Shown one piece after another: positions 1 to 58,765 of a stretch of DNA of 58,765 bases. The stretch's first letter is position 1; every line of letters begins with the position of its first letter. A model generated the notes under the pieces. The model was not told where the DNA came from. It ran no database searches and saw only the letters and a program-made list of their open reading frames with translations. The DNA is from a phage, in sequence record PX530564.1; one strand, 5' to 3'. The translations under genes and the position numbers were made by a program.

Positions 1-78
1 CAAGTAGCACTCGTAGTAGTCGGTGCTTGTTGCCTAGCGGCAGCCTGTGCTTGCGTGTGGTGCTTCGTCAATTGTTAA
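1..78 (+). CDS. 3' end of a small Cys-rich hydrophobic protein, partial (runs off window start); possibly the gene 1.4 equivalent
   Basis: Open frame from position 1 (..ALVVVGACCLAAACACVWCFVNC) ending TAA 76-78 at the phi1.5 promoter; no start codon inside window. Confidence 0.3.
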   Translation, partial: QVALVVVGACCLAAACACVWCFVNC

Positions 79-98
79 TACGACTCACTAAAGGAGGT
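76..98 (+). promoter_or_regulatory. T7 RNAP class II promoter (phi1.5-like)
   Basis: TAATACGACTCACTAAAGGAGGT, one mismatch to T7 consensus; directly upstream of gene 1.5. Confidence 0.85.
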
Positions 99-103
99 AC
101 ACA

Positions 104-196
104 ATGATGTACTTAATGCCACTACTGATTGTTATCGTTGGGTGCCTTGCGCTGCACTATAGTGACAACGACGATATGCCAGATGGTCACGCCTAA
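104..196 (+). CDS. 1.5: gene 1.5 small membrane protein (29 aa)
   Basis: ATG 104 after promoter, MMYLMPLLIVIVGCLALHYSDNDDMPDGHA, TAA 194-196; matches T7 gp1.5 size and position. Confidence 0.65.
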   Translation: MMYLMPLLIVIVGCLALHYSDNDDMPDGHA

Positions 197-202
197 TATT
201 CC

Positions 203-225
203 TAATACGACTCACTAAAGGAGAC
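203..225 (+). promoter_or_regulatory. T7 RNAP promoter (phi1.6-like)
   Basis: TAATACGACTCACTAAAGGAGAC upstream of gene 1.6. Confidence 0.85.
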
Positions 226-230
226 ACTAT

Positions 231-491
231 ATGTTTCGACTTCATTACAACAAAAGCCTTAAGGGTTTCTCAGTTCGCCGTGCTGACCGTTCAATCGTAT
301 GTGCGAGCGAGCGCCGAGCTAAGCTACCTCTTATTGGTGACACAGTTCCTTTGGCACCGAGCGTCCACATCATTATCACTCGTGGTGACTTTGAGAAAGC
401 AATAGACAAGAAACGTCCGGTTCTTAGTGTGGCAGTGACCCGCTTCCCGTTCGTCCGTCTGTTACTCAAACGCATCAAGGAGGTGTTCTAA
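231..491 (+). CDS. 1.6: gene 1.6 protein (86 aa)
   Basis: ORF track 231..491; position and sequence as T7 gp1.6; second copy at 36408. Confidence 0.85.
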
Positions 492-1132
492 TGGGTTGCA
501 TAGCTTGCTTAGAGAAAGACGACCGTTATCCACACACTTGCAACAAAGGAGCTAACAATATGACCGAACGTGAACAAGAGATTATCATTCAGTTGATAGA
601 TAATAACGAGGGTCGTAGCGGGGACACATCTGGTTGCGGACTGTTCTGCGCTGGAGTACCTTGCGGCGAGTGTCCTGTGACAAACGATGGGCACATTACT
701 CTAGGTGAAATCCGAGCGATGGACCCGCGTAAACCTCACCTGAATAAACTTGAGGTAACTCCTACAGATGACCAGCCTTCAACCGAGGAACACAGCGATG
801 GAATGGTGTGTAACTGCGAGCGTGACTACGATACAAGTGATGGACACGCACTAGACTGTTCAATCCGCGGTGTCAACTCCCAAGCCAATGTGGTCGATGG
901 TGTCACTAATCCGTCCCATTACATGCTGTTCGACGACATTGAGGCTATCGAAGTGATTGCCCGTTCAATGACTCGTGAGCAGTTTAAAGGGTACTGCTTT
1001 GGGAACATCCTTAAGTATCGCCTACGGGCTGGTAAGAAGTCCGAACTGGCTTACTTAGAGAAGGACATGGCGAAAGCGGGGTTCTATGGTGAACTGTATG
1101 AGAAACATAAGGACAAGTGCTATGACTCTTAA
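491..1132 (+). CDS. 1.7: gene 1.7 nucleotide kinase-like protein (213 aa)
   Basis: ORF track; start overlaps 1.6 stop; Cys-rich N-terminal region and conserved C-terminus (..NPSHYMLFDDIEAIEVIARSMT..). Confidence 0.85.
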   Translation: MGCIACLEKDDRYPHTCNKGANNMTEREQEIIIQLIDNNEGRSGDTSGCGLFCAGVPCGECPVTNDGHITLGEIRAMDPRKPHLNKLEVTPTDDQPSTEEHSDGMVCNCERDYDTSDGHALDCSIRGVNSQANVVDGVTNPSHYMLFDDIEAIEVIARSMTREQFKGYCFGNILKYRLRAGKKSELAYLEKDMAKAGFYGELYEKHKDKCYDS

Positions 1133-1212
1133 CGATATTCTGTACTTAGGGTTAATTTTCGCTGGAGCAGGCGCGTTACTTCGCTTAATGTATTGGGCCA
1201 TAGAGGTGGAAT

Positions 1213-1525
<313 letters not shown>

Positions 1526-1528
<3 letters not shown>

Positions 1529-1548
1529 TACGACTCACTATTGGGAGA
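1526..1548 (+). promoter_or_regulatory. T7 RNAP promoter phi2.5-like
   Basis: TAATACGACTCACTATTGGGAGA overlapping gene 2 stop. Confidence 0.8.
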
Positions 1549-1594
1549 AGACTCCCTTTGAGAAACTAAATGAAACCGAAAGGAGACTAACATT

Positions 1595-2302
1595 ATGGCT
1601 AAGAAGATTTTCACCTCTGCGCTGGGTATTGCTGAACCTTACGCTTACATCTCCAAGCCGGACTACGGCAACGAAGAGCGTGGCTTTGGGAACCCTCGTG
1701 GTGTTTATAAAGTTGACCTGACCATTCCTAACAAAGACCCGCGTTGTCAACGTATGGTCGATGAAATCGTGAAGTGTCACGAAGAGGCTTATGCTGCTGC
1801 CGTTGAGGAATATGAGGCCAACCCGCCAGCCGTAGCTCGTGGTAAGAAACCACTGAAACCGTATGAGGGCGACATGCCGTTCTTCGATAACGGTGACGGT
1901 ACGACTACCTTTAAGTTCAAATGCTACGCGTCCTTCCAAGACAAGAAGACCAAAGAGACCAAACACATCAATCTGGTAGTGGTGGACTCCAAGGGCAAGA
2001 AGATGGAAGACGTTCCGATTATCGGTGGTGGCTCTAAGCTGAAAGTCAAGTACTCTCTTGTTCCGTACAAGTGGAACACTGCTGTAGGTGCCAGCGTTAA
2101 GCTGCAACTGGAATCCGTGATGCTGGTCGAACTGGCTACCTTTGGTGGCGGTGAAGACGATTGGGCTGACGAAGTTGAAGAGAACGGCTATGTTGCCTCT
2201 GGTTCTGCCAAAGCGAGCAAACCACGCGACGAAGAAAGCTGGGACGAAGACGACGATAATGAGTCCGAAGAAGAAGAAGCAGACGAAGACGGAGACTTCT
2301 AA
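1595..2302 (+). CDS. 2.5: gene 2.5 ssDNA-binding protein (235 aa, acidic C-terminal tail)
   Basis: ORF track; acidic tail ..DEDDDNESEEEEADEDGDF typical of T7 gp2.5. Confidence 0.9.
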   Translation: MAKKIFTSALGIAEPYAYISKPDYGNEERGFGNPRGVYKVDLTIPNKDPRCQRMVDEIVKCHEEAYAAAVEEYEANPPAVARGKKPLKPYEGDMPFFDNGDGTTTFKFKCYASFQDKKTKETKHINLVVVDSKGKKMEDVPIIGGGSKLKVKYSLVPYKWNTAVGASVKLQLESVMLVELATFGGGEDDWADEVEENGYVASGSAKASKPRDEESWDEDDDNESEEEEADEDGDF

Positions 2303-2758
2303 GTGGCTGGCGCATACGCTGCGCGTGGAATCCGAAAGGTCGGGACATTCCGTTCCGGCCTAGAAGATAAAGTCTCTAAGCAGCTAGAGGGTAAGGGCAT
2401 CAAGTTCGACTATGAACTATGGAAAATCCCTTACGTTGTCCCTGCGAGCAACCATGTGTATACTCCAGACTTCCTGCTGCCGAACGGAATCTTTATTGAA
2501 ACCAAAGGTTTATGGGAGAGTGACGACCGAAAGAAACACTTACTGATTCGCGAACAGTTTCCTGAACTAGACATACGTCTGGTGTTCTCAAGCTCCCGCA
2601 CCAAGCTGTACAAAGGGTCTCCGACCAGTTACGGTGAGTGGTGCGAGAAGCACGGCATACTGTTTGCTGACAAATTAATTCCTGTAGAATGGCTCAAAGA
2701 ACCCAAAAAGGAGGTGCCATTTGACAAGCTAAAGCAATCTAAGGGAGGAAAGAAATAA
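2303..2758 (+). CDS. 3: gene 3 endonuclease I (Holliday junction resolvase)
   Basis: ORF track, GTG start immediately after 2.5 stop; (M)AGAYAARGIRKVGTFRSGLEDKVSKQLEGKGIKF.. as T7 endo I. Confidence 0.9.
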   Translation: MAGAYAARGIRKVGTFRSGLEDKVSKQLEGKGIKFDYELWKIPYVVPASNHVYTPDFLLPNGIFIETKGLWESDDRKKHLLIREQFPELDIRLVFSSSRTKLYKGSPTSYGEWCEKHGILFADKLIPVEWLKEPKKEVPFDKLKQSKGGKK

Positions 2759-3213
2759 TGGCCCGTGTACAGTTTAAACCGCGTGAATCTACCGAAGCAA
2801 TCTTTGTTCACTGCTCAGCGACTAAACCTAGCCAGAACGTAGGTGTCCGTGAGATTCGTCAGTGGCATAAAGAGCAAGGTTGGTTGGACGTAGGGTATCA
2901 CTTTATCATCAAACGCGATGGTACTGTGGAGGAAGGTCGAGACGAGATGGCTGTAGGTTCCCACGCTAAGGGACACAACCACAACTCAATCGGTGTCTGC
3001 CTTGTTGGTGGTATTGACGATAAAGGTAAGTTCGACGCTAACTTTACGCCAGCCCAAATGCAATCCCTTCGCTCACTGCTTGTCACACTGCTGGCTAAGT
3101 ACGAAGGCTCTGTGCTGAAAGCTCACCATGATGTTGCACCGAAGGCTTGCCCTTCGTTCGACCTTAAGCGTTGGTGGGAGAAGAATGAGTTGGTCACATC
3201 TGACCGAGGTTAA
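2758..3213 (+). CDS. 3.5: gene 3.5 lysozyme / N-acetylmuramoyl-L-alanine amidase (151 aa)
   Basis: ORF track; MARVQFKPRESTEAIFVHCSATKPSQNVGVREIRQWHKEQGWLDVGYHFII.. as T7 lysozyme. Confidence 0.92.
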   Translation: MARVQFKPRESTEAIFVHCSATKPSQNVGVREIRQWHKEQGWLDVGYHFIIKRDGTVEEGRDEMAVGSHAKGHNHNSIGVCLVGGIDDKGKFDANFTPAQMQSLRSLLVTLLAKYEGSVLKAHHDVAPKACPSFDLKRWWEKNELVTSDRG

Positions 3214-3214
3214 T

Positions 3215-3239
3215 TAATTGAACTCACTAAAGGGAGACC
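3215..3239 (+). promoter_or_regulatory. T7 RNAP promoter phi3.8-like
   Basis: TAATTGAACTCACTAAAGGGAGACC between lysozyme and gene 4. Confidence 0.75.
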
Positions 3240-3269
3240 ACAACGGTTTCCCTTTGTTCGCAATGTTGA

Positions 3270-4988
<1,719 letters not shown>

Positions 4989-5052
4989 TGTGAACCCATA
5001 TGGACACAGACCGGACGATTCGTGTCTGTGCTCCTATTGCGTATTCAGAGAT

Positions 5053-5075
5053 TAATACAACTCACTAAAGGAGAC
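5053..5075 (+). promoter_or_regulatory. T7 RNAP promoter phi4.3-like
   Basis: TAATACAACTCACTAAAGGAGAC upstream of gene 4.3. Confidence 0.7.
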
Positions 5076-5080
5076 ACATC

Positions 5081-5293
5081 ATGTTCAAACTGATTAAGAA
5101 GTTAGGCCAACTGCTGGTTCGTATGTACAACGTGGAAGCTAAACGCCTGAACGATGAGGCTCGTAAAGAGGCAACCCAGTCACGCGCTCTGGCGATTCGC
5201 TCCAACGAACTGGCTGACAGTGCATCAACTAAAGTTACCGAAGCTGCCCGTGTAGCAAACCAAGCTCAACAGCTTTCCAAATTCTTTGAGTAA
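5081..5293 (+). CDS. 4.3: gene 4.3 protein (70 aa)
   Basis: ORF track; MFKLIKKLGQLLVRMYNVEAKRLNDEARKEATQSRALAIRS.. Confidence 0.8.
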   Translation: MFKLIKKLGQLLVRMYNVEAKRLNDEARKEATQSRALAIRSNELADSASTKVTEAARVANQAQQLSKFFE

Positions 5294-5312
5294 TCAAACA
5301 GGAGAAACCATT

Positions 5313-5582
5313 ATGTCTAACGTAGCTGAAACTATCCGTCTATCCGATACCGCTGACCAGTGGAACCGTCGAGTCCACATCAACGTCCGCAACGGTAAGG
5401 CGACTATGGTTTACCGCTGGAAGGACTCTAAGTCCTCTAAGAATCACACTCAACGTATGACGCTGACAGACGAGCAAGCACTCCGTCTGGTCAATGCCCT
5501 TACGAAAGCTGCCGTGACAGCAATCCATGAAGCTGGTCGCGTCAATGAAGCTATGGCTATTCTCGATAAGATTGATAGCTAA
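5313..5582 (+). CDS. 4.5: gene 4.5 protein (89 aa)
   Basis: ATG 5313 with GGAGA RBS inside ORF 5286..5582. Confidence 0.8.
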   Translation: MSNVAETIRLSDTADQWNRRVHINVRNGKATMVYRWKDSKSSKNHTQRMTLTDEQALRLVNALTKAAVTAIHEAGRVNEAMAILDKIDS

Positions 5583-5583
5583 G

Positions 5584-5622
5584 AGTGGTATACTCAAGGT
5601 CGCCCAAGTGGTGGCCTTCATG
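5584..5622 (+). promoter_or_regulatory. RNase III processing hairpin (R4.7-like)
   Basis: ACTCAAGGTCGCCC..GGTGGCCTTCATGG inverted repeat, the recurring T7 RNase III site motif. Confidence 0.45.
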
Positions 5623-5625
5623 GAT

Positions 5626-5650
5626 ACTATTCGACTCACTATAGGAGACA
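5626..5650 (+). promoter_or_regulatory. T7 RNAP promoter phi4.7-like
   Basis: ACTATTCGACTCACTATAGGAGACA. Confidence 0.7.
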
Positions 5651-5655
5651 TTATC

Positions 5656-6063
5656 ATGCGTGACCCTAAAGTTATCCAAGCAGAAATCGCTAAACTGGAA
5701 GCTGAATTGGAGGACGTTAAGTACCATGAAGCTAAGACTCGCTCCGCTGTTCACATCTTGAAGAACTTAGGTTGGACTTGGACAAGACAGACTGGCTGGA
5801 AGAAACCAGAAGTTACCAAGCTGAGCCATAAAGTGTTCGATAAGGACACAATGACCCACATCAAAGCTAGTGATTGGGTGAAGGTCGACATGGGAGTTGT
5901 TGGTGGATATGGCTACGTCCGCTCAGTTAGTGGTAAATACGCACAAGTGTCATACATCACAGGTGTTACCACACGAGGAGCAATCGTTGCTGATAAGACC
6001 AACATGATTCACACAGGCTTCTTGACAGTTGTCTCGTATGAAGAGATAGTTAAGGCACGATAA
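5656..6063 (+). CDS. 4.7: gene 4.7 protein (135 aa)
   Basis: ATG 5656 (MRDPKVIQAEIAKLEAELE..) inside ORF 5527..6063. Confidence 0.8.
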   Translation: MRDPKVIQAEIAKLEAELEDVKYHEAKTRSAVHILKNLGWTWTRQTGWKKPEVTKLSHKVFDKDTMTHIKASDWVKVDMGVVGGYGYVRSVSGKYAQVSYITGVTTRGAIVADKTNMIHTGFLTVVSYEEIVKAR

Positions 6064-6081
6064 TCAATAGGAGAAATCAAT

Positions 6082-8196
6082 ATGATCGTTTCTGACATCG
6101 AAGCTAACGCCCTCTTAGAGAGCGTCACTAAGTTCCACTGCGGGGTTATCTACGACTACTCCACCGCTGAGTACGTAAGCTACCGTCCGAGTGACTTCGG
6201 TGCGTATCTGGATGCGCTGGAAGCCGAGGTTGCACGAGGCGGTCTTATTGTGTTCCACAACGGTCACAAGTATGACGTTCCTGCATTGACCAAACTGGCT
6301 AAGTTACAGTTGAACCGAGAGTTCCACATTCCTCGTGAGAACTGTATCGACACCCTTGTGCTATCACGTTTGATTCACTCGAACCTCAAAGACACCGATA
6401 TGGGTCTTCTGCGTTCCGGTAAGTTGCCCGGAAAACGCTTTGGGTCTCACGCTTTGGAGGCGTGGGGTTATCGCTTAGGTGAAATGAAAGGTGAATACAA
6501 AGACGACTTTAAGCGGATGCTTGAAGAGCAGGGTGAAGAATACGTTGACGGAATGGAATGGTGGAACTTCAACGAAGAGATGATGGCCTATAACGTTCAG
6601 GACGTTGTGGTCACTAAGGCTCTCCTTGAGAAGCTACTCTCTGACAAACATTACTTTCCTCCTGAGATTGACTTTACGGACGTAGGATACACTACTTTCT
6701 GGTCAGAATCCCTTGAGGCCGTTGACGTTGAACATCGTGCTGCATGGTTACTAGCCAAACAGGAGCGTAATGGGTTCCCGTTTGACACGAAAGCAATCGA
6801 AGAGTTGTACGTAGAGTTAGCTGCTCGACGCTCTGAGTTGCTGCGTAAATTGACCGAAACGTTCGGTTCGTGGTATCAACCTAAAGGCGGCACTGAAATG
6901 TTCTGCCATCCGAGGACTGGTAAACCACTTCCTAAGTATCCTCGCATTAAGACACCTAAAGTTGGTGGCATCTTTAAGAAGCCCAAGAACAAGGCACAGC
7001 GAGAAGGTCGTGAGCCTTGCGAACTGGATACCCGTGAGTACGTTGCTGGTGCTCCTTATACTCCGGTCGAGCACGTAGTGTTTAACCCTTCGTCTCGTGA
7101 CCACATTCAGAAGAAACTCCAAGAGGCTGGATGGGTCCCGACTAAGTTCACCGATAAGGGTGCTCCTGTGGTGGACGATGAGGTACTCGAAGGAGTACGT
7201 GTAGATGACCCTGAGAAGCAAGCTGCTATCGACCTCATTAAAGAGTACTTGATGATTCAGAAGAGAATCGGACAGTCTGCTGAGGGTGATAAGGCTTGGC
7301 TTCGTTACGTTGCTGAGGACGGTAAAATTCATGGTTCTGTTAATCCCAACGGCGCTGTTACTGGTCGCGCTACTCACGCTTTCCCTAACCTCGCACAGAT
7401 ACCCGGTGTCCGTTCTCCTTATGGTGAGCAGTGCCGCGCTGCTTTTGGCGCTGAACATCACCTAGATGGTGTTACTGGTGAGCCTTGGGTTCAGGCTGGT
7501 ATCGATGCGTCCGGTCTGGAGCTACGCTGCTTGGCACATTTCATGGCTCGCTTTGATTACGGTGAGTACGCTAGAGAGATTCTTCATGGCGACATCCACA
7601 CTAAGAACCAGCTAGCTGCCGAATTACCTACCCGTGATAACGCCAAGACGTTCATCTATGGGTTCCTCTATGGCGCTGGTGATGAGAAGATTGGACAGAT
7701 TGTTGGTGCTGGTAAAGAGCGCGGTAAGGAACTCAAGAAGAAATTCCTTGAGAACACCCCAGCGATTGCTGCACTCCGCGAATCTATCCAACAGACACTT
7801 GTCGAGTCCTCTCAGTGGGTCGCTGGTGAGCAACGAGTCAAATGGAAACGCCGCTGGATTAAAGGTCTGGATGGTCGTAAAGTACACGTTCGTAGTCCGC
7901 ACGCTGCGTTGAATACCCTCCTGCAATCTGCTGGTGCTCTCATCTGCAAACTGTGGATTATCAAGACAGAAGAGATGCTCGTAGAGAAAGGCTTGAAGCA
8001 TGGCTGGGATGGGGACTTTGCGTACATGGCGTGGGTACACGATGAAATCCAAGTAGGTTGCCGTACCGAAGAGATTGCTCAGGTGGTAATTGAGACCGCA
8101 CAAGAAGCAATGCGCTGGGTTGGAGACCACTGGAACTTCCGGTGTCTTCTGGATACCGAAGGTAAGATGGGTCCTAACTGGGCCGTATGTCACTAA
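6082..8196 (+). CDS. 5: gene 5 DNA polymerase (704 aa, family A with 3'-5' exonuclease and thioredoxin-binding region)
   Basis: ORF track; [26 protein letters not shown].. and polymerase motifs ..[13 protein letters not shown].., ..WVHDEIQ.. Confidence 0.97.
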   Translation: MIVSDIEANALLESVTKFHCGVIYDYSTAEYVSYRPSDFGAYLDALEAEVARGGLIVFHNGHKYDVPALTKLAKLQLNREFHIPRENCIDTLVLSRLIHSNLKDTDMGLLRSGKLPGKRFGSHALEAWGYRLGEMKGEYKDDFKRMLEEQGEEYVDGMEWWNFNEEMMAYNVQDVVVTKALLEKLLSDKHYFPPEIDFTDVGYTTFWSESLEAVDVEHRAAWLLAKQERNGFPFDTKAIEELYVELAARRSELLRKLTETFGSWYQPKGGTEMFCHPRTGKPLPKYPRIKTPKVGGIFKKPKNKAQREGREPCELDTREYVAGAPYTPVEHVVFNPSSRDHIQKKLQEAGWVPTKFTDKGAPVVDDEVLEGVRVDDPEKQAAIDLIKEYLMIQKRIGQSAEGDKAWLRYVAEDGKIHGSVNPNGAVTGRATHAFPNLAQIPGVRSPYGEQCRAAFGAEHHLDGVTGEPWVQAGIDASGLELRCLAHFMARFDYGEYAREILHGDIHTKNQLAAELPTRDNAKTFIYGFLYGAGDEKIGQIVGAGKERGKELKKKFLENTPAIAALRESIQQTLVESSQWVAGEQRVKWKRRWIKGLDGRKVHVRSPHAALNTLLQSAGALICKLWIIKTEEMLVEKGLKHGWDGDFAYMAWVHDEIQVGCRTEEIAQVVIETAQEAMRWVGDHWNFRCLLDTEGKMGPNWAVCH

Positions 8197-8213
8197 TTCT
8201 ATAGGAGGACCTT

Positions 8214-8441
8214 ATGGCACGGCGCTATAGGATTCGCGAAGTTCGAATGGCTACAGGCGAGACTTTATACTACCCACAGTTCCGTCATGCGTGGCTACCA
8301 TTCTGGTTCCACTTTAAGGGCTACACAGTAGAACGCAGGGTGTCATTCACTTATTATGCCGAAGCATTGGGGTTCATCAATGAATGTAAACTAAATGATG
8401 AACCTGAGGAACGGAATGTTATCAGAAACCACTATCTTTAA
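8214..8441 (+). CDS. hypothetical protein (75 aa), block-A-specific insertion between gene 5 and gene 5.5
   Basis: ORF track; AGGAGG RBS 8 nt upstream of ATG; no equivalent in block D where gene 5 abuts 5.5 directly; no recognisable motif. Confidence 0.5.
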   Translation: MARRYRIREVRMATGETLYYPQFRHAWLPFWFHFKGYTVERRVSFTYYAEALGFINECKLNDEPEERNVIRNHYL

Positions 8442-8454
8442 AGGAGAAATCATT

Positions 8455-10010: not shown

Positions 10011-10021
10011 CGTATATCGGT

Positions 10022-10111
10022 ATGGGCCTTTGTGGTCTCGGAGTGTTCCTCATTGCGTGGGGACTTTGGGACTTAGCCAGAACAATCAAGGCGTTACACG
10101 ACACTAAGTGA
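10022..10111 (+). CDS. 6.3: gene 6.3 small hydrophobic protein (29 aa)
   Basis: ATG 10022, MGLCGLGVFLIAWGLWDLARTIKALHDTK, TGA 10109-10111. Confidence 0.5.
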   Translation: MGLCGLGVFLIAWGLWDLARTIKALHDTK

Positions 10112-49278: not shown

Positions 49279-49304
49279 CTAAAGGCTACATAAGGAGGCC
49301 CTAA

Positions 49305-52300
49305 ATGGATAAGTACGATAAGAACGTACCAAGTGATTATGATGGTCTGTTCCAAAAGGCGGCTGATGCCAACGGGGTCTCGTATGACCTTTTACGTAAA
49401 GTCGCTTGGACGGAATCACGCTTTGTACCTACAGCAAAATCTAAGACTGGACCATTAGGCATGATGCAGTTCACCAAGGCAACCGCTAAGGCACTTGGTC
49501 TGCGAGTTACCGATGGTCCAGATGATGACCGACTAAACCCTGAGTTGGCTATCAATGCTGCCGCCAAGCACCTTGCAGGTCTGGTAGGGAAGTTTGATGG
49601 CGATGAACTCAAAGCTGCCCTTGCATACAACCAAGGCGAGGGACGCTTGGGTAATCCTCAACTTGAGGCGTACTCTAAGGGAGACTTCGCGTCCATCTCT
49701 GAGGAAGGACGGAACTACATGCGTAACCTTCTGGATGTTGCTAAGTCACCTATGGCTGGACAGTTAGAAACTTTTGGAGGTATCACCCCAAAGGGTAAAG
49801 GCATTCCGGCTGACGTTGGACTAGCTGGAATAGACCATAGTCAGAAAGTAACACAGGAACTTCCTGAGTCCACAAGTTTTGACGTTAAAGGTATCGAACA
49901 GGAGGCTCCGGCGAAACCATTCGCCAAGGACTTTTGGGAGACCCACGGAGAAACACTTGATGAGTACAACAGTCGTTCAACCTTCTTCGGATTCAAAAAT
50001 GCTGCCGAAGCTGAACTCTCCAACTCAGTCGCTGGGATGGCTTTCCGTGCTGGTCGCCTCGATAATGGTTTTGATGTGTTTAAAGACACCATTACGCCGA
50101 CTCGCTGGAACTCTCACATCTGGACTCCAGAAGAGTTAGAGAAGATTCGAACTGAGGTTAAGAACCCTGCGTATATCAACGTGGTAACTGGTGGTTCTCC
50201 TGAGAATCTTGACGACCTCATTAAGCTGGCTAACGAGAACTTTGAGAATGACTCACTCGCTGCCGAAGCTGGCCTCGGTGCTAAACTGAGTGCTGGCATT
50301 ATTGGCGCTGGTGTGGACCCTCTTAGTTATGTTCCCATGGTTGGTGTAACTGGTAAGGGCTTTAAGTTAATCAATAAGGCTCTTGTGGTTGGTGCAGAAA
50401 GTGCTGCGCTGAACGTTGCATCCGAAGGTCTCCGCACATCCGTAGCTGGTGGCGATGCAGATTATGCTGGTGCTGCCTTAGGTGGCTTTGTGTTTGGCGC
50501 TGGTATGTCTGCAATCAGTGATGCTGTAGCTGCTGGTCTGAAACGTAGTAAACCAGAAGCTGAGTTCGACAATGAGTTCATTGGTCCCATGATGCGGATG
50601 GAAGCCCGTGAGACAGCGCGTAACGCCAACTCTGCGGACCTCTCTCGGATGAACACTGAGAACATGAAGTTTGAAGGTGAATACAAAGGCGTTCCATATG
50701 AGGAACTTCCGACCGAAAAGGGTGCTGTGGTTCTCCATGACGGCTCCATACTTAGTGCGAGCAACCCAATCAACCCCAAGACTCTCAAAGAGTTCTCCGA
50801 GGTTGACCCTGAGAAAGCGGCACGAGGAATCAAACTAGCAGGGTTCACTGAGATAGGGTTAAAGACCTTAGGCTCAGACGACGCTGATATTCGACGGGTA
50901 GCTATTGACCTAGTGCGGTCTCCTACCGGAATGCAATCAGGTTCCTCAGGGAAGTATGGTTCAACAGCTTCGGACATTTTCGAGAAACTTCGTGGCACTG
51001 ACCAGCGTACTTACAACGACTTGTATAAGGCGATGTCTGACGCGATGAAAGACCCTGAGTTCTCCACTGGCGGCGCTAAGATGTCTCGCGAAGAAGCTCG
51101 TTACACTATCGAGCGTCGAGTGTCCTTGGCTATTGAGAACCCTGAGCTACAGAAGGCTTTAACTCCTAACGAGCGAATCGTAATGGACATCGTTAAGCGA
51201 CATTATGACACCAAGCGTGAACTTATGGAGAACCCTGCGGTCTTTGGTAACACGAAGGCTGTGAGTATCTTTCCGGAGAGTAGACACAAGGGAACATATG
51301 TTCCACATGTGTACGACAAGTACGCTAAGGCACTCAAAATTCAACAATATGGTGCTGAGGGCTTACAGGAAGGTATCGCTCGGTCATGGATGTGTAGCTA
51401 CGATTTGAGGCCTGCGGTAAAGGCCCGTATTGACGAAGCACTTAAAGAGATGCACGGTGTAGAGGAAGTCACACATGATATGGTGTATAAGTACGCTATG
51501 GATAAAGCATACGGTATCTCTCACTCAGACAGGTTCACTAATAGCTCCATCATTGAGGAGAACATTGAGGGTCTTGTTGGTATTGAGAATAACTCATTCC
51601 TTGAAGCACGAAACCTCTTTGACTCCGACTTAGCAATCACCATGCCAGATGGTCAGCAATTCTCTGTGAACGATTTGAGGGACTTTAGTATGTTCCGTAT
51701 CATGCCAGCGTATGACCGCCGTATCAACGGTGACATAGCCATCATGGGGTCTACCGGTAAAACCACTAAGGAACTTAAGGATGAGATTTTGGCTCTCAAA
51801 GCGAAAGCTGAGGGTGACGGTAAGAAGACTGGCGAGGTTCATGCTCTAATGGATACCGTTAAGATTCTTACTGGTCGTGCTCGACGCAATCAGGACACTG
51901 TGTGGGAAACCTCACTGCGTGCCATTAATGACCTAGGGTTCTTCGCCAAGAACGCCTATATGGGTGCTCAGAACCTTACGGAGATTGCTGGGATGATTGC
52001 CACGGGTAACGTGCGTGCTCTTGGTCACGGTATCCCAATTCTACGTGATACACTCTACAAGTCTAAACCAGTTTCCGCTAAGGAACTTAAGGAACTCCAT
52101 GCGTCTCTGTTCGGGAAGGAGGTGGACCAGTTGATTAGACCTCAACGTGCTGACATAGTGCAGCGTCTAAGGGAAGCAACTGACACAGGGCCTGTTGTGG
52201 CGAACATCGTAGGAACCTTAAAGTATTCCACACAGGAACTAGCTGCTCGCTCTCCATGGACTAAGCTGCTTAATGGAACCACTAACTACCTTCTTGATGC

Positions 52301-53111
52301 TGCGCGTCAAGGTATGCTTGGGGACGTTATTAGTTCTACCCTAACAGGTAAGACTACCCGCTGGGAGAAAGAAGGATTCCTTCGTGGTGCCTCCGTAACT
52401 CCTGAGCAGATGGCTGGAATCAAGGCTCTCATCAAGGAACATATGGTACGTGGTGAGGACGGGAAGTTTACCGTTAAGGATAAGCACGCGTTCTCTATGG
52501 ACCCTCGTGCTATGGACTTATGGAGACTGGCTGACAAGGTAGCTGATGAGGCGATGCTGCGTCCACACAAGGTGTCCTTACAGGATTCCCATGCGTTCGG
52601 AGCATTAGGTAAGATGGTCATGCAGTTTAAGTCTTTCACTATCAAGTCCCTTAACTCTAAGTTCCTGCGAACCTTCTACGATGGGTACAAGAACAACCGA
52701 GCGATTGACGCTGCGCTGACTGGTATCATATCTATGGGTCTCGCTGGTGGCTACTACGCTATGGCTGCACACGTCAAAGCATATGGAATGCCTAAGGAGA
52801 AACGTAAAGAGTACTTGGAGCGAGCACTGGACCCAACCATGATTGCCCACGCTTCGTTGTCTCGTAGTTCTCAATTGGGTGCTACTTTGGCTATGGCTGA
52901 CCTAGTTGGTGGCCTGTTCGGGGTTGAGTCCTCAAAGATGGCCCGCTCTACGATTCTGCCTAAAGACACCATGAGGGAGCGTGACCCTAATAAGCCTTAT
53001 ACCTCGTGGGAGGTAATGGGTAATATGGGTTCCAACATTCTTGAACAGATGCCATCGGCTGGATTTGTGGCTAACGTTGGGGCTTCCCTACTTAATCTGC
53101 TGGCGTGGTGA
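49305..53111 (+). CDS. 16: gene 16 internal core protein D, C-terminally truncated by a 1-nt deletion (1268 aa; full length would be about 1318)
   Basis: ORF track; collinear with 21815..25771 until about 53090, where a missing base shifts the frame (..LLNLLAW stop); remaining conserved codons 53100..53260 are out of frame. Confidence 0.85.
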   Translation: MDKYDKNVPSDYDGLFQKAADANGVSYDLLRKVAWTESRFVPTAKSKTGPLGMMQFTKATAKALGLRVTDGPDDDRLNPELAINAAAKHLAGLVGKFDGDELKAALAYNQGEGRLGNPQLEAYSKGDFASISEEGRNYMRNLLDVAKSPMAGQLETFGGITPKGKGIPADVGLAGIDHSQKVTQELPESTSFDVKGIEQEAPAKPFAKDFWETHGETLDEYNSRSTFFGFKNAAEAELSNSVAGMAFRAGRLDNGFDVFKDTITPTRWNSHIWTPEELEKIRTEVKNPAYINVVTGGSPENLDDLIKLANENFENDSLAAEAGLGAKLSAGIIGAGVDPLSYVPMVGVTGKGFKLINKALVVGAESAALNVASEGLRTSVAGGDADYAGAALGGFVFGAGMSAISDAVAAGLKRSKPEAEFDNEFIGPMMRMEARETARNANSADLSRMNTENMKFEGEYKGVPYEELPTEKGAVVLHDGSILSASNPINPKTLKEFSEVDPEKAARGIKLAGFTEIGLKTLGSDDADIRRVAIDLVRSPTGMQSGSSGKYGSTASDIFEKLRGTDQRTYNDLYKAMSDAMKDPEFSTGGAKMSREEARYTIERRVSLAIENPELQKALTPNERIVMDIVKRHYDTKRELMENPAVFGNTKAVSIFPESRHKGTYVPHVYDKYAKALKIQQYGAEGLQEGIARSWMCSYDLRPAVKARIDEALKEMHGVEEVTHDMVYKYAMDKAYGISHSDRFTNSSIIEENIEGLVGIENNSFLEARNLFDSDLAITMPDGQQFSVNDLRDFSMFRIMPAYDRRINGDIAIMGSTGKTTKELKDEILALKAKAEGDGKKTGEVHALMDTVKILTGRARRNQDTVWETSLRAINDLGFFAKNAYMGAQNLTEIAGMIATGNVRALGHGIPILRDTLYKSKPVSAKELKELHASLFGKEVDQLIRPQRADIVQRLREATDTGPVVANIVGTLKYSTQELAARSPWTKLLNGTTNYLLDAARQGMLGDVISSTLTGKTTRWEKEGFLRGASVTPEQMAGIKALIKEHMVRGEDGKFTVKDKHAFSMDPRAMDLWRLADKVADEAMLRPHKVSLQDSHAFGALGKMVMQFKSFTIKSLNSKFLRTFYDGYKNNRAIDAALTGIISMGLAGGYYAMAAHVKAYGMPKEKRKEYLERALDPTMIAHASLSRSSQLGATLAMADLVGGLFGVESSKMARSTILPKDTMRERDPNKPYTSWEVMGNMGSNILEQMPSAGFVANVGASLLNLLAW

Positions 53112-53257
53112 ATGCTCCCAACAAAGCCACTGAGCAGGACTTCATGACTGGCTTGATGAACTCTACCAAGGAGTTAGTACCTAACGACCCTCTTACTCAA
53201 CAGCTTGTGTTGAAGATTTATGAGGCGAATGGTGTTAACTTGAGGGAACGTCGGAAA

Positions 53258-53280
53258 TAATACGACTCACTATAGGGAGA
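53258..53280 (+). promoter_or_regulatory. T7 RNAP class III promoter phi17-like (block E copy)
   Basis: TAATACGACTCACTATAGGGAGA. Confidence 0.9.
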
Positions 53281-53332
53281 GGCGAAAGAATCTTCTCCCT
53301 GTAGTCTCTTAGATTTACTTTAAGGAGGTCAA

Positions 53333-55205
53333 ATGGCTAACGTAATTAAAACCGTTTTGACTTACCAGTTAGATGGCTCCACTCGTGATTTTAATATCCC
53401 GTTTGAGTATCTAGCCCGTAAGTTCGTAGTGGTAACTCTTATTGGTGTAGACCGCAAGGTCCTTACGATTAATACAGACTACCGTTTTGCTACTCGCACT
53501 ACTATCTCACTAACCAAGGCTTGGGGTCCAGCGGATGGATATACTACAATAGAGCTACGTCGAGTAACCTCCACGACCGACCGCTTGGTTGACTTTACGG
53601 ATGGCTCAATCCTCCGTGCGTATGACCTTAACGTCGCTCAGATTCAAACGATGCACGTAGCGGAAGAGGCCCGTGACTTAACTGCGGATACTATCGGTGT
53701 CAATAATGATGGTAACTTGGATGCTCGTGGTCGTCGAATTGTGAACCTAGCGAACGCTGTAGATGACCGTGACGCTGTTCCGTTTGGTCAACTTAAGGCT
53801 ATGAACCAGAACTCATGGCAGGCGCGTAATGAGGCCTTACAGTTCCGTAATGAGGCTGAGACTTTCAGAAATCAAGCGGAGGGCTTTAAGACCGAGTCTG
53901 GCACTAACGCTGCTAATACGAAGCAGTGGCGTGATGAGACCAAAGGTTTCCGAGACGAAGCTGAGCAGTTTAAGAATACTGCTGGTCAATATTCTACATC
54001 CGCTGGGAACTCTGCGACCGCAGCACACCAATCTGAGGTAAACGCTGAGAACTCCGCAACAGCCTCCGCTAACTCTGCCCAGTCAGCAGAACAGCAAGCA
54101 GACCGCGCTAAGGTGGAAGCAGACAAGTTGGGTAACTGGAATGCACTTGCAGGGGCAATTGATAGTGTTGACGGGAACAATGTCATGTTTAAAGGCGACA
54201 TTTAGAACACCTGCAAATATCGTAGGTGGTGGCTTAATCTCCAACGGTTCTGGTCATTTTGAGAAAGGCGTGGCTGTTAAGGGTGAATTAGATGTTGTAG
54301 GGGATGTTTCGGCGCATAAGGATGTGTGGGTAGATGGTGTAGTTGTAGCCAATGGTGGGATACAGCAACATTCAAATCCTAATACCCTTAATGAGGTGTG
54401 GAGGGTGTTTATTAAGGGGGTCCCACTCCATATTGGAAACCGACAAGGTCTTCATCTTGGTTGGAACGAGACCAGTAATGGCGAGTCGTGTTTTGTTACT
54501 AACAAAGGTGCAGGTGGTGGTGGTTTTGTTTTCCGCACGGTAAACTTTGAGAACACTGCTGAGATTGGTCGCGTTACATTCACTGGTAACGGTGGAGTAC
54601 GCGCCTTCGATTTACAAGCAATTAATGGTGCTCGTATTGAGGCTGGGAATAATATAGTTGGTGCGAGCATTTTCTCAGGAATGGGCGCCTGCCAGTTCAA
54701 TACCGAAGGTAACTTGCTGGGAGGTCTATGGAACAGAGTTGGAGGTGACCTATACAACTACCTGTGGAACAAGAGTCACTTTGCTAAGCCACCTGCTGGG
54801 GTTCAATTGTTTACAGGCCGTGGTGGGGACTACCTTGAGGGCCTTGTTGATACTACAGCTGTTGGGTTCCGCTGGTTCAATTCTGACAGAAGGCTTAAAG
54901 AAAACATAAAGGTTGTACGTTCCGCTGATGATATGCTTAAGATTATCCGCTCATACATCCCGGTTTCCTATAAGTATAAGGACTCTGAGTATGTTGATAA
55001 GCGTGGCAGAACGGTAAGCGTTACCGGTAAGAACTCTCGTGCTGGTTTCATTACTCAGGATTTGATTCGAATCTGGCCAGAGGCGGTGGACGTGCTATCC
55101 GATGGTATGCAATCCCCAGACCCTAACCAAATCATCGGTGGACTCATGCTTCTTGTCAAGAATCTTGATGAACGCGTACAGGAGTTGGAGAAAAATAACG
55201 TTTAA
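53333..55205 (+). pseudogene. 17: gene 17 tail fibre split by a 1-nt frameshift near 54200; C-terminal module carries an intramolecular-chaperone (endosialidase-chaperone-like) autocleavage domain
   Basis: ORFs 53333..54205 and 54141..55205; removing one T of the TTT at 54201-54203 joins ..NVMFKGDI to RTPANIVGGG..; C-terminal ..WFNSDRRLKENIKVV.. motif. Confidence 0.8.
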
Positions 55206-55222
55206 GGATAACACTGGATTAG

Positions 55223-55236
55223 GACCAAGGATGGTA
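55223..55236 (+). promoter_or_regulatory. stem-loop upstream of holin gene
   Basis: ACCA-AGGA-TGGT-type hairpin, related to 27926..27943. Confidence 0.3.
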
Positions 55237-55253
55237 TTTAATAAGGAGGATAC

Positions 55254-55457
55254 ATGCTGTCTTTGGATTTCAATAATGAGTTAGTCAAGGCTGCGCCTAT
55301 TGTTGGCACTGGTGTTGCCGATGGTGCTGCGAGGCTTTTCTTCGGGCTGAGTCTTAATGAGTGGTTCTATATTGCTGCTATCGCCTACACAGTGGTTCAG
55401 ATTGGTGCCAAGGTAGTCGATAAGATGATTGACTGGAAGAAAGCCAATAAGGAGTGA
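55254..55457 (+). CDS. 17.5: gene 17.5 holin (67 aa)
   Basis: ORF track; MLSLDFNNELVKAAPIVGTGVADGAARLFFGLSLNEWFYIAAIAYTVVQIGAKVVDKMIDWKKANKE, one transmembrane segment. Confidence 0.9.
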   Translation: MLSLDFNNELVKAAPIVGTGVADGAARLFFGLSLNEWFYIAAIAYTVVQIGAKVVDKMIDWKKANKE

Positions 55458-55462
55458 TATGT

Positions 55463-55732
55463 ATGGAAAAAGATAAGAGCCTCATTACGTTCTTAGAGAT
55501 GTTGGACACTGCGATGGCTCAGCGTATGCTTGCGGACCTTTCGGACCCTGAGCGGCGCTCTCCTCAACTCTATAACGCCATCAACAAACTGTTAGACCGC
55601 CACAAGTTCCAGATTGGTAAGTTGCAGCCGGATGTTCACATCTTAGGTGGCCTTGCTGGTGCTCTTGAAGAGTACAAAGAGAAAGTAGGTGATAACGGTC
55701 TTATGGATGACGATATTTACACATTACAGTGA
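55463..55732 (+). CDS. 18: gene 18 terminase small subunit (89 aa)
   Basis: ATG 55463 (MEKDKSLITFLEMLDTAMAQRMLADLSD..) inside ORF 55454..55732. Confidence 0.88.
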   Translation: MEKDKSLITFLEMLDTAMAQRMLADLSDPERRSPQLYNAINKLLDRHKFQIGKLQPDVHILGGLAGALEEYKEKVGDNGLMDDDIYTLQ

Positions 55733-55774
55733 TATACTCAAGGCCACTACATATAGTGGTCTTTATGGATGTCA
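55729..55774 (+). promoter_or_regulatory. RNase III processing hairpin (R18.5-like)
   Basis: GTGATATACTCAAGGCCACTACATATAGTGGTCTTTATGGATGTC. Confidence 0.4.
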
Positions 55775-55826
55775 TTGTCTACACGAGATGCTCCTACGTG
55801 AAATCTGAAAGTTAACGGGAGGCATT

Positions 55827-56270
55827 ATGCTAGAATTTTTACGTAAGCTAATCCCTTGGGTTCTCGCTGGGATGCTATTCGGATTAGGATGGCATCTAGG
55901 GTCAGACTCAATGGACTCTAAATGGAAACAGGAGGTACACGATGAGTACGTTAAGAGAGTTGAGGCTACGGCGAGCACTCAAAGAGCAATCAATGAAATA
56001 TCGGCTAAGTATCAAGAAGACCTTGCCGCGCTGGAAGGGAGCACTGATAGGATTATTTCTGATTTGCGTAGCGACAATAAGCGGCTGCGCGTCAGAGTCA
56101 AAACTACCGGAACCTCCGATGGTAAGTGTGGATTCGAGCCTGATGGTCGAGCCGAACTTGACGACCGAGATGCTAAACGTATTCTCGCAGTGACCCAGAA
56201 GGGTGACGCATGGATTCGTGCGTTACAGGATACTATTCGTGAACTGCAACGTAAGCAGGAAATCAAGTAA
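55827..56270 (+). CDS. 18.5: gene 18.5 inner-membrane spanin (Rz-like, 147 aa)
   Basis: ORF track; N-terminal transmembrane segment then coiled-coil region. Confidence 0.85.
   Translation: MLEFLRKLIPWVLAGMLFGLGWHLGSDSMDSKWKQEVHDEYVKRVEATASTQRAINEISAKYQEDLAALEGSTDRIISDLRSDNKRLRVRVKTTGTSDGKCGFEPDGRAELDDRDAKRILAVTQKGDAWIRALQDTIRELQRKQEIK
55942..56193 (+). CDS. 18.7: gene 18.7 outer-membrane lipoprotein spanin (Rz1-like, 83 aa) embedded in the +1 frame of 18.5
   Basis: ORF track; signal peptide plus lipobox ..ATISGC; embedded architecture as in T7. Confidence 0.75.
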   Translation: MSTLRELRLRRALKEQSMKYRLSIKKTLPRWKGALIGLFLICVATISGCASESKLPEPPMVSVDSSLMVEPNLTTEMLNVFSQ

Positions 56271-56279
56271 GGAGGCAAT

Positions 56280-58040
56280 GTGTCTACTCAATCCAATCGT
56301 AATGCGCTCGTAGTGGCGCAACTGAAAGGAGACTTCGTGGCGTTCCTGTTCGTCTTATGGAAGGCGTTAAACCTTCCGGTACCCACCAAGTGTCAGATTG
56401 ATATGGCTAAGGTACTGGCGAATGGAGACAACAAGAAGTTCATCCTACAGGCTTTCCGTGGTATCGGTAAGTCGTTCATCACGTGTGCGTTCGTTGTGTG
56501 GTCCTTATGGAGAGACCCTCAGTTGAAGATACTTATCGTATCAGCCTCTAAGGAACGTGCAGACGCTAACTCCATCTTTATTAAGAACATCATTGACCTG
56601 CTCCCGTTCCTAGCTGAGCTAAAGCCAAGACCCGGACAGCGTGATTCTGTAATCAGCTTTGATGTAGGTCCGGCTAACCCTGACCACTCTCCTAGTGTGA
56701 AATCAGTAGGTATCACTGGTCAGTTAACTGGTAGCCGTGCTGACATTATCATTGCGGATGACGTTGAGATTCCGTCTAACAGTGCAACTATGGGTGCCCG
56801 TGAGAAGCTATGGACTCTCGTTCAGGAGTTCGCTGCGTTACTTAAACCGCTGCCTTCCTCTCGCGTTATCTACCTTGGTACACCTCAGACAGAGATGACT
56901 CTCTATAAGGAACTTGAGGATAACCGTGGGTACACAACCATTATCTGGCCTGCCCTGTACCCAAGGACGCGTGAAGAGAACCTCTATTACTCACAGCGTC
57001 TTGCTCCTATGTTACGCGCTGAGTATGATGAGAACCCTGAGGCCCTCGCTGGGACTCCTACAGACCCTGTTCGCTTTGACCGTGATGACCTCCGTGAGCG
57101 TGAGTTGGAATACGGCAAGGCTGGCTTCACACTACAGTTCATGCTTAACCCGAACCTGAGTGATGCCGAGAAGTACCCTCTGAGGCTCCGTGACGCTATC
57201 GTAGCGGCCTTAGACTTAGAGAAGGCCCCAATGCATTACCAGTGGCTTCCGAACCGTCAGAACATCATTGAGGACCTTCCTAACGTTGGCCTTAAGGGTG
57301 ATGACCTTCATACGTATCACGATTGCTCCAACAACTCTGGTCAGTATCAACAGAAGATTCTGGTCATTGACCCTAGTGGTCGCGGTAAGGACGAAACAGG
57401 TTACGCTGTGCTGTACACCCTGAACGGTTATATCTACCTTATGGAAGCTGGAGGTTTCCGTGATGGTTACTCCGATAAGACCCTTGAGTTGCTCGCTAAG
57501 AAGGCCAAGCAGTGGGGAGTCCAGACGGTTGTCTATGAGAGTAACTTCGGTGACGGTATGTTTGGTAAGGTGTTCAGTCCTATCCTTCTTAAACACCACA
57601 ACTGTGCAATGGAAGAGATTCGCGCTCGTGGTATGAAGGAGATGCGTATTTGTGATACCCTTGAGCCAGTCATGCAGACTCACCGCCTTGTCATTCGTGA
57701 TGAGGTCATTCGGGCCGACTACCAGTCCGCTCGTGACGTAGACGGTAAGCATGACGTTAAGTACTCACTGTTCTACCAGATGACCCGTATCACCCGTGAG
57801 AAAGGCGCTCTGGCTCATGATGACCGATTGGATGCCCTTGCGTTAGGCATTGAGTATCTCCGTGAGTCCATGCAGTTGGATTCCATTAAGGTCGAGGGTG
57901 AAGTACTTGCTGACTTCCTTGAGGAACACATGATGCGTCCTACAGTAGCTGCCACGCACATCATTGAGATGTCTGTGGGAGGAGTTGATGTGTACTCTGA
58001 GGACGATGAGGGTTACGGTACGTCTTTCATTGAGTGGTGA
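56280..58040 (+). CDS. 19: gene 19 terminase large subunit (586 aa)
   Basis: ORF track, GTG start after AGGAGG RBS; (M)[53 protein letters not shown].. Confidence 0.95.
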
Positions 58041-58121
58041 TTTATGCATTGAGACTGCATAGGGATGCACTATAGACCACGGATGGTCAGTTCCTTAAGT
58101 TACTGAAAAGACATGATAAAT

Positions 58122-58144
58122 TAATACGACTCACTATAGGGAGA
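58122..58144 (+). promoter_or_regulatory. T7 RNAP promoter phiOR-like
   Basis: TAATACGACTCACTATAGGGAGA after gene 19. Confidence 0.9.
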
Positions 58145-58297
58145 GGAGGGACGAAAGGTTACTATATAGATACTGAATGAATACTTATAGAGTGCATAAA
58201 GTATGCATAGTAGTGTACCTAAAGTGACCTCTAAGAATGGTGATTATATTGTATTAATATCACCTTAACTTAAAGACCAACATAAAGGAGGAGACTC

Positions 58298-58447
58298 ATG
58301 TTCCGCTTATTGTTGAACCTACTGCGGCATAGAGTCACCTACCGCTTTCTTATGGTACTTTGTGCTGCCCTTGGTTACGCAGTTCTTAATGGAGACCTCA
58401 GTTCATTGGAGTCTACCGTTTGCTCTTTACTTACTTGTGTTGATTAA
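58298..58447 (+). CDS. 19.5: gene 19.5 small membrane protein (49 aa)
   Basis: ATG 58298 with AAGGAGG RBS; MFRLLLNLLRHRVTYRFLMVLCAALGYAVLNGDLSSLESTVCSLLTCVD. Confidence 0.7.
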   Translation: MFRLLLNLLRHRVTYRFLMVLCAALGYAVLNGDLSSLESTVCSLLTCVD

Positions 58448-58489
58448 GGTCTTCATAACAGACTGATGGCTCACCGAGGGATTCAGCGG

Positions 58490-58686
58490 TATGATTGCAT
58501 CACACCACTTCATCCCTATAGAGTCAAGTCCTAAAGTATATCCATAAAGAGCCTCTAATGGTCTATCCTAAGGTCTATACCTAAAGATAGGCCATCCTAT
58601 CAGTGTCACCTAAAGAGAGTCCTAGAGAGGGCCTAGGGAGTTCCTAGAGGGTCCTTTAAAATATACCATAAAAATCTGAGTGACTA
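58490..58686 (+). repeat. right-end short-repeat region (CCTAAAG-type heptamers and GAGGGYCCT-type motifs) before the terminal repeat
   Basis: Several CCTAAAG / CTAAAGA copies and CCTAGAGAGGGCCTAGGGAGTTCCTAGAGGGTCCT. Confidence 0.45.
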
Positions 58687-58765
58687 TCTCACAGTGTACG
58701 GACCCAAAGTTCCCCCCATACGGGGTACCTAAAGCCCACCTAAAGTCAACCGAAGGTCCTTAGGG
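58687..58765 (+). repeat. right terminal repeat, first ~79 bp (runs off window end)
   Basis: TCTCACAGTGTACGGACCCAAAGTTCCCCCCATACGGGGTACCTAAAGCCCACC..; differs by substitutions and indels from the repeat copy at 28001. Confidence 0.7.

Follow-up and report, generated by a model that had tools for sequence, protein, structure and literature searches.

Composite sequences of T7-like phages can arise in several ways, each with a recognisable structure. In natural Teseptimavirus mosaicism, which proceeds by homologous recombination and homing-endonuclease exchange, identity to relatives varies from block to block, and gene order and reading frames are kept. Inter-strain chimeras in metagenome assemblies place a mosaic of close strains in one contig, with gene sets duplicated at less than 100% identity; they switch between parents at shared k-mers and usually keep synteny. 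A T7 replication concatemer is longer than one unit, lies on one strand and contains an internal left terminal repeat, and its true junction consists of the right end, one repeat and the left end of the same genome. Corrupted or hand-edited multi-FASTA files yield blocks identical to database records, boundaries at line ends in both source and product, the first or last base of a record at block ends, and no overlap between neighbouring blocks. The window analysed here (the whole stretch of 58765 nt) shares features with each of these. We conclude that it was almost certainly made by computer, by splicing whole lines of FASTA text from the files of at least four T7-like phage genomes; unlike the typical corrupted file, it includes a block (block A) for which no public source was found.

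Results

Block structure of the window

The window consists of five blocks separated by four joins, which lie exactly at 28000/28001, 40530/40531, 42770/42771 and 48720/48721. In a BLAST comparison with the T7 genome (NC_001604), the blocks fall on five separate diagonals, whose T7 positions are given last in each line.

1..28000, + strand: block A, 400 x 70 nt, from the 3′ part of T7 gene 1.4 through gene 17 and 32 nt into gene 17.5; T7 7686 to about 36.3 kb
28001..40530, + strand: block B, 179 x 70 nt, equal to bases 1-12530 of Escherichia phage vB_EcoM_CQ615 (PQ010280.1); T7 16-13015
40531..42770, + strand: block C, 32 x 70 nt, equal to 701-2940 of Escherichia phage C5 (MH717099.1); T7 about 712-2858
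42771..48720, + strand: block D, 85 x 70 nt, equal to C5 12321-18270; T7 13056-18998
48721..58765, + strand: block E, equal to 29191-39235 (the last base) of Escherichia phage 64795_ec1 (KU927499.1); T7 30011-39849

Genes 1.4/1.5-6.7, 0.3-0.7 and 15-17 are each present twice, at 86.5-98.6% identity by self-BLAST. The HNH and endonuclease VII insertions are not alike between the duplicate copies.

73-4735 versus 36260-40530: 89-93.5% identity
4776-10602 versus 42771-48721: 88-93% identity
21231-26673 versus 48721-54164: 86.5% identity
28663-31228 versus 40531-42757: 86.5-98.6% identity

The original prediction had described a mosaic of five blocks from related T7-like genomes, abruptly joined out of collinear order and about 1.5 unit genomes long, in which genes 0.3-0.7, 15-17 and 1.5-6.7 recur as inexact repeats. 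The total length, the self-comparison and T7 comparison that it had suggested, and the naming of the sources agree with this description. Three of its joins (28000, 40530 and 48720) were placed correctly, and the fourth, 42768, was 2 nt short of the true 42770. It had rightly expected several parents and copies below 100% identity; its count of at least three genomes was too low, since at least four were found, and its identity range of 90-98% was narrower than the one measured.

The window does not have the organisation of a complete Teseptimavirus genome, in which the genes from 0.3 to 19.5 stand in a single collinear order within about 38-40 kb. It begins within gene 1.4, and direct terminal repeats are not found at both ends of the molecule; the left repeat is internal, at 28001-28127. 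A gene for a single-subunit RNA polymerase is present (gene 1 at 31550-34201, 883 aa, in block B and in a single copy), as are T7-type promoters (14 matches in the window versus 0 expected by chance), which occur at the T7 consensus in all blocks.

Source records of blocks B to E

Block B is 100.000% identical to CQ615 over 12530 nt with 0 gaps, and the two strings are equal. It contains the left terminal repeat, genes 0.3-0.7, gene 1, genes 1.1-3.5 and gene 4 minus its last 250 nt. The first 15 nt of the T7-type repeat are missing from the start of the CQ615 record, which begins at a point equivalent to C5 position 16, and its direct terminal repeat, which has become internal in the window, also equals CQ615 39583-39709 at 100%.

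28001..28127, + strand: direct terminal repeat of CQ615

Blocks C and D are both identical to phage C5 by string equality. Block C (100.0% over 2240 nt) comprises genes 0.3, 0.4 and 0.6B together with the early promoter region, and it breaks off after 842 nt of gene 0.7; because phage N30 matches it only from query base 124 onward, its source is C5. Block D (100.0% over 5950 nt, versus only 99.7% for N30) carries an HNH endonuclease gene and genes 4.3-6.5 between the gene 4 tail and the opening 155 nt of gene 6.7. Block E is 100.000% identical to 64795_ec1 over 10045 nt, again with string equality, and runs from the gene 15 tail through gene 16 (frameshifted), gene 17 (split) and genes 17.5, 18, 18.5 and 19 to the right end. 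In the annotation of KU927499.1 itself, ‘tail fibers protein’ is entered as two CDSs and gp16 is shortened. The three records are the work of different laboratories, in more than one country: C5 was obtained in China from swine faeces, CQ615 in Shandong from sewage, and 64795_ec1 in Italy. A literature search for CQ615 or for co-mention of the source phages returned nothing relevant.

Internal frameshifts are confined to block B, where gene 1.7 is split, and block E, where gene 16 is shortened and gene 17 split. These are already in the deposited CQ615 and 64795_ec1 records and were carried over unchanged, and blocks C and D are cut at their edges only. The earlier reading that block A alone is free of frameshifts and truncations thus holds for the 11 large genes of block A, which are intact, and fails in two respects: the edges of block A are themselves cut, and blocks C and D also lack internal frameshifts.

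Structure of the joins

At the joins, neighbouring sources have 0-1 nt in common, and the map positions that are linked are non-homologous. Genes 17.5, 4, 0.7, 6.7 and 15 are cut in their interior, which leaves truncated products and out-of-frame fusions.

27969..28000, + strand: join 1, start codon of gene 17.5 (holin) plus 29 nt, followed by base 1 of the CQ615 record
39080..40537, + strand: join 2, primase/helicase gene 4 cut at 40530, then 7 nt of the non-coding C5 early region and a stop (ORF list)
41929..42987, + strand: join 3, chimeric 352-aa ORF in which the gene 0.7 kinase N-terminus is followed by the final 213 nt of gene 4, read in another frame
48566..48826, + strand: join 4, 86-aa ORF, the first 155 nt of gene 6.7 joined to the gene 15 interior

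The sequence before join 1 has a close natural counterpart in ENA scaffold L005, which is 99.2% identical to 27394-28000 and continues into the holin gene, gp18, Rz and gp19, whereas the window switches to a genome left end. In CQ615, gene 4 occupies 11080-12780 of the record and was cut at 12530. The exact sequence of the join-3 chimeric protein was not in the public gene-position index. At join 4, C5 18270 directly abuts 64795_ec1 29191.

The 70-nt register

The block lengths 28000, 12530, 2240 and 5950 and the source offsets 700, 2940, 12320, 18270 and 29190 share exactly 70 as their greatest common divisor, block A contributing its length of 28000 and not an offset in a source record. In window coordinates, the joins coincide with the ends of 70-nt lines 400, 579, 611 and 696. 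The chance that seven independent coordinates would all be 0 modulo 70 is 70^-7, or about 1.2e-13. NCBI FASTA output has a line width of 70. We excluded the possibility that the unit came from the wrapping of our own analysis files, as those wrap at 60 and 80. Block ends also coincide with record termini: the first base of block B is base 1 of CQ615, an arbitrary position within the terminal repeat, and the last base of 64795_ec1 closes both block E and the window.

Origin of block A

Genes 7-14 have their sole window copies in block A. Its closest relative in the phage collection is Serratia phage Pila (MN098329.1), at 95.2% identity over 95% of the query, with per-gene identities from 91.8% to 98.4%. 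The block runs collinearly with Pila 7662-35283 and ends within gene 17.5 at the equivalent of Pila 35283 of 38678, about 3.4 kb before the right end. In the 11 large genes, all of them intact, 738 of the 870 mismatches to Pila are at codon position 3. The longest exact run shared with any reference is at most 698 nt. Block A is a natural stretch, intact and collinear, of a Pila-like T7-like phage, here called X.

Other readings of block A were considered. A computationally mutated copy of Pila is excluded by the third-position share of the mismatches (85%), and further hidden joins within the block are ruled out by the collinearity with Pila, the intact large genes and the lack of a kilobase-scale exact run with references. 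An alignment break at 493, close to 490, a multiple of 70, is not a join; it falls within the gp1.7 nucleotide kinase, which is full-length and aligns with its relatives from end to end. ENA contigs encoding the exact block-A exonuclease were rejected as X because their gene 5 region differs (a 660-aa polymerase and an HNH gene).

Searches for X or for the chimera itself gave no match in the plasmid and E. coli genome collections, and Pila, at the identity given above, remained the best match in the phage collection. Exact 60-mers from join 1 and the tail-fibre region had 0 matches in IMG/VR, and an exact 34-mer had 0 matches in JGI metagenome contigs and GTDB genome contigs. The gp17 ORF was not in the public gene-position index. 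In an exact look-up, 12 of 16 block-A proteins were absent from the protein collection, in which control proteins of C5 and 64795_ec1 were present and the CQ615 RNA polymerase was absent. Because this control indicates that recent records can be missing from the collections, the negative result is no proof that X is unpublished.

Discussion

What process could have produced this arrangement? Three features are observed directly: four blocks are identical to public records, every boundary keeps the 70-nt register, and neighbouring blocks do not overlap at the joins. Together with the record termini at block ends, they are the features of a line-wise splice of FASTA text. In such a splice, whole 70-character lines from several files would have been joined with their headers absent, the pieces being 400 lines of X, CQ615 lines 1-179, C5 lines 11-42 and 177-261, and 64795_ec1 from line 418 to its end. 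Line ranges, including headers, may have been lost from an ordered multi-FASTA file, or line ranges may have been pasted by hand or by a script; the splice could be either accidental or deliberate. We infer that the window never existed as a physical DNA molecule. The original prediction had set a real contiguous molecule against an assembly artefact, to be decided by read mapping; the data point instead to a third cause, a splice at the level of the file text. Since the boundaries lie at multiples of 70, the blocks are 100% identical to records and the joins share no sequence, read mapping is unnecessary to reject a real molecule.

We also considered that an assembler might have made the window, by mis-joining T7-like strains from a mixed sample or co-assembly in a de Bruijn or overlap graph. 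The sources are 86-98% identical relatives, which is the setting in which inter-strain chimeras arise, and public metagenome assemblies hold many T7-like contigs of 39-40 kb. However, path switches need shared k-mers at homologous positions, and no change of parent was seen at such positions inside a stretch of at least one common k-mer; the joins, with at most 1 nt in common, connect for example T7 positions of about 13.0 kb with 0.7 kb and of 19.0 kb with 30.0 kb. Under misassembly, one sample would also have had to contain strains matching the Chinese and Italian isolates at 100.000% over 12.5 kb and 10 kb, and this reading leaves both the register of GenBank coordinates and the coincidence of block ends with record termini unexplained. 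We therefore regard an assembler chimera as very unlikely. Ordinary mosaicism by homologous recombination does not fit either: synteny and reading frames are kept inside block A and are lost at the four joins.

A real molecule would be either a replication concatemer or an illegitimate-recombination product of co-infection by T7-like phages. T7 does replicate through head-to-tail concatemers, the window does contain a genome left end at 28001, and the promoters in all blocks suggest parent phages that would have been transcriptionally compatible. Yet join 1 is not a junction of right end, terminal repeat and left end: block A breaks off after 32 nt of gene 17.5, leaving about 3.4 kb to the right end, and the block that follows is a different genome, 89-93.5% identical where A and B overlap; the other three joins have no concatemer logic. 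Such a molecule would further need four illegitimate joins all on multiples of 70 in database coordinates, parents base-identical to records deposited years apart, and a length of 58.8 kb, about 1.5 times the T7 genome, which exceeds the capacity of the T7 capsid; genes 4, 0.7, 6.7, 15 and 17.5 are broken in it. This origin is extremely unlikely, and a synthetic hybrid T7 scaffold built from parts of several phages is equally so. Modular T7-family chimeras have been made in laboratories, but the window has no vector, marker or designed overlap sequence, and its joins are mid-gene, out of frame and off the borders of genes or modules. The early and replication genes are present twice and genes 7-14 are supplied by block A alone, the design would be non-viable, and the 70-nt register has no cloning logic. 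That the joins are physical in any form, as a 58.8 kb hybrid (an illegitimate-recombination or defective co-infection product, or a synthetic stitch) whose parents were base-identical to CQ615, C5 and 64795_ec1 and whose register was coincidental, is vanishingly improbable. A separate and far more likely reading is that block A derives from a Pila-like Teseptimavirus without an exact match in the searched collections.

As a line-wise splice, the mosaic is a data-handling artefact without biological novelty and a matter of data hygiene. In a sequence scan, it would give rise to false calls of a recombinant phage, gene duplication or fusion proteins, such as the 352-aa kinase/helicase and 86-aa gp6.7/gp15 chimeras. 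A cheap and reusable test is to find stretches 100% identical to public records and to check their offsets for a FASTA line-width divisor (60, 70 or 80). We recommend flagging the window and then removing it or splitting it into its five blocks, of which only block A, an ordinary T7-like genome segment, is absent from the searched collections.

The blocks follow the order X, PQ010280, MH717099 and KU927499, with the internal order of each record kept and the accessions running from newest to oldest. This order might hint at a single pass through a newest-first NCBI download, and for the three known records it would arise by chance in 1 of 6 cases.

Block structure and sources

The sequence had been read as a mosaic of at least three related T7-like genomes in five blocks with abrupt joins, and comparison with T7 (NC_001604) did resolve it into five separate diagonals, on the + strand throughout. 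The four predicted join positions were likewise confirmed, their exact places being 28000/28001, 40530/40531, 42770/42771 and 48720/48721. Sources were assigned by searches of a phage collection, after which GenBank records were compared with the blocks by local BLAST and string matching. These comparisons supported the mosaic interpretation and raised the number of contributing phage records to at least four: four of the five blocks (B-E) are letter-for-letter GenBank copies.

Blocks of the window, their source records and their T7 counterparts
Block A, 1-28000: phage X, the phage from which this block derives; T7 7686 to about 36.3 kb
Block B, 28001-40530: Escherichia phage vB_EcoM_CQ615, PQ010280.1, 1-12530; T7 16-13015
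Block C, 40531-42770: Escherichia phage C5, MH717099.1, 701-2940; T7 about 712-2858
Block D, 42771-48720: Escherichia phage C5, MH717099.1, 12321-18270; T7 13056-18998
Block E, 48721-58765: Escherichia phage 64795_ec1, KU927499.1, 29191-39235 (last base); T7 30011-39849

Phage N30, a near-twin of C5, was rejected as the source of blocks C and D, since it is only 99.7% identical across D and leaves the initial 123 nt of C unmatched. C5 came from swine faeces in China, CQ615 from sewage in Shandong and 64795_ec1 from Italy. Block E, and with it the window, ends at the last base of the 64795_ec1 record, and block B begins at base 1 of CQ615 as deposited, which falls arbitrarily within the T7-type terminal repeat, 15 nt in. 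Because of this starting point, and because a 127-nt repeat is found at both ends of the CQ615 record, its deposited termini are probably not its physical ends. The record start (window 28001-28045) is equivalent to C5 position 16.

The duplications originally predicted were seen again when the window (58765 nt) was compared with itself: 73-4735 recurs at 36260-40530 (identity up to 93.5%), 4776-10602 at 42771-48721 (88-93%), 21231-26673 at 48721-54164 (86.5%) and 28663-31228 at 40531-42757 (86.5-98.6%). GC content per kb is even (0.43-0.52).

How might the mosaic have arisen?

Every join cuts a gene and brings together positions that are non-homologous on the T7 map; the neighbouring sources have 0, 0, 0 and 1 nt in common at joins 1-4, respectively.

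Genes cut at the joins
Join 1, 28000: gene 17.5 (holin), cut after 32 nt
Join 2, 40530: gene 4 (primase/helicase), cut 250 nt short of its end
Join 3, 42770: gene 0.7, cut after 842 nt and continued into the final 213 nt of gene 4, in the wrong frame
Join 4, 48720: gene 6.7, cut after 155 nt, then the interior of gene 15

The block lengths 28000, 12530, 2240 and 5950 and the source offsets 700, 2940, 12320, 18270 and 29190 have 70 as their greatest common divisor, the number of characters per line in NCBI FASTA output. Counted in such lines, block A is 400 lines of X, B is CQ615 lines 1-179, C and D are C5 lines 11-42 and 177-261, and E runs from 64795_ec1 line 418 to the end; the joins fall at window lines 400, 579, 611 and 696. 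By chance, seven independent coordinates would all be divisible by 70 with a probability of about 1.2e-13. We rejected the wrapping of our analysis files as the origin of this register, as those files wrap at 60 and 80.

The cause of the mosaic is a splice at the level of text, neither biological nor introduced by assembly, and it holds no novel feature. We are nearly certain that at least four phage records contributed whole 70-column FASTA lines, which were strung together with no headers between them, accidentally or deliberately. Line ranges, header lines among them, may have been lost from one ordered multi-FASTA; the preserved internal order of each record and the sequence of blocks, the most recent accession first and the oldest last (PQ, MH, KU), would fit such a loss, with little statistical weight. 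As the CQ615 accession is recent, the splicing probably dates from no earlier than 2024.

An assembler chimera is very unlikely: a switch would be expected within k-mers shared at homologous positions, and an assembler is blind to GenBank line breaks. A real concatemer or recombinant molecule is more improbable by far, in that join 1 lies about 3.4 kb before a right end and is followed by another genome, essential genes are disrupted, and the T7 capsid is too small for 58.8 kb. We give just as little credence to an engineered construct, of whose design joins in mid-gene and out of frame would not be expected. We recommend that the window be marked as a chimeric data artefact, the cause being a text-level splice.

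Block A

Block A alone carries sequence new to the collections searched, and is an ordinary T7-like segment. In the phage collection, Serratia phage Pila comes closest (95.2% identity across 95% of 25 kb), and its positions 7662-35283 are collinear with block A. Identity per gene ranges from 91.8% (gp4, gp6, gp17) to 98.4% (gp10). The divergence looks natural, in that 738 of the 870 mismatches in 11 large genes affect third codon positions and each of these genes is full length. No kb-scale exact run was shared with any reference compared, no sequence identical to block A or to the chimera was found in the phage, plasmid or E. coli collections, and neither had exact-word matches in IMG/VR, JGI metagenomes or GTDB genomes. 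Most block A proteins and the junction ORF were missing from the protein and gene-position indexes searched; as a control, the 2024 CQ615 RNA polymerase was likewise missing from the protein collection. X may be a newer or unpublished genome and probably represents a distinct relative at species level within Teseptimavirus. An ENA metagenome scaffold, 99.2% identical to 27394-28000, continues into holin, gp18, Rz and gp19, as the natural continuation of block A would look.

Gene defects and accessory features

The original prediction that only block A is free of frameshifts and truncations stood in part: although truncated at either end, block A has intact genes, and C and D have no internal defects. 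Defects inside B and E are already in the deposited records, where they are probably sequencing errors.

Defective genes in the deposited records
36668-37136: gene 1.7, split in the CQ615 record into 113-aa and 46-aa ORFs
49305-53111: gp16, 1268 aa rather than 1318 in the 64795_ec1 record, plus a 50-aa ORF
53333-55205: gene 17, two annotated CDSs in the 64795_ec1 record

In the C5 block, genes 4 and 4.3 are separated by an HNH gene (42991-43449) that block A lacks (4986 to 5073); in the CQ615 block, 0.6 and 0.7 are separated by an endonuclease VII gene (29932-30321) that the C5 block lacks. A putative homing endonuclease (36006-36278) lies downstream of the CQ615 ligase gene. Such presence or absence of endonuclease-type genes between copies is how mobile genes usually vary among T7-like phages.

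The T7 class III promoter consensus had 14 matches in the window (8 exact and 6 near) versus 0 expected by chance, with the exact copies at 10132, 13064, 14101, 18477, 25769, 48251, 53258 and 58122. As exact copies are present in blocks A, D and E, promoter specificity of the T7 RNA polymerase type appears to be common to all the source phages. T7-like protein clusters also contain names of unlikely hosts (a Staphylococcus hyicus DNA polymerase, a Xylella fastidiosa internal virion protein D and an Enterococcus phage EFA-2 capsid), so that some public assemblies seem to be mislabelled or contaminated with T7-family sequence.
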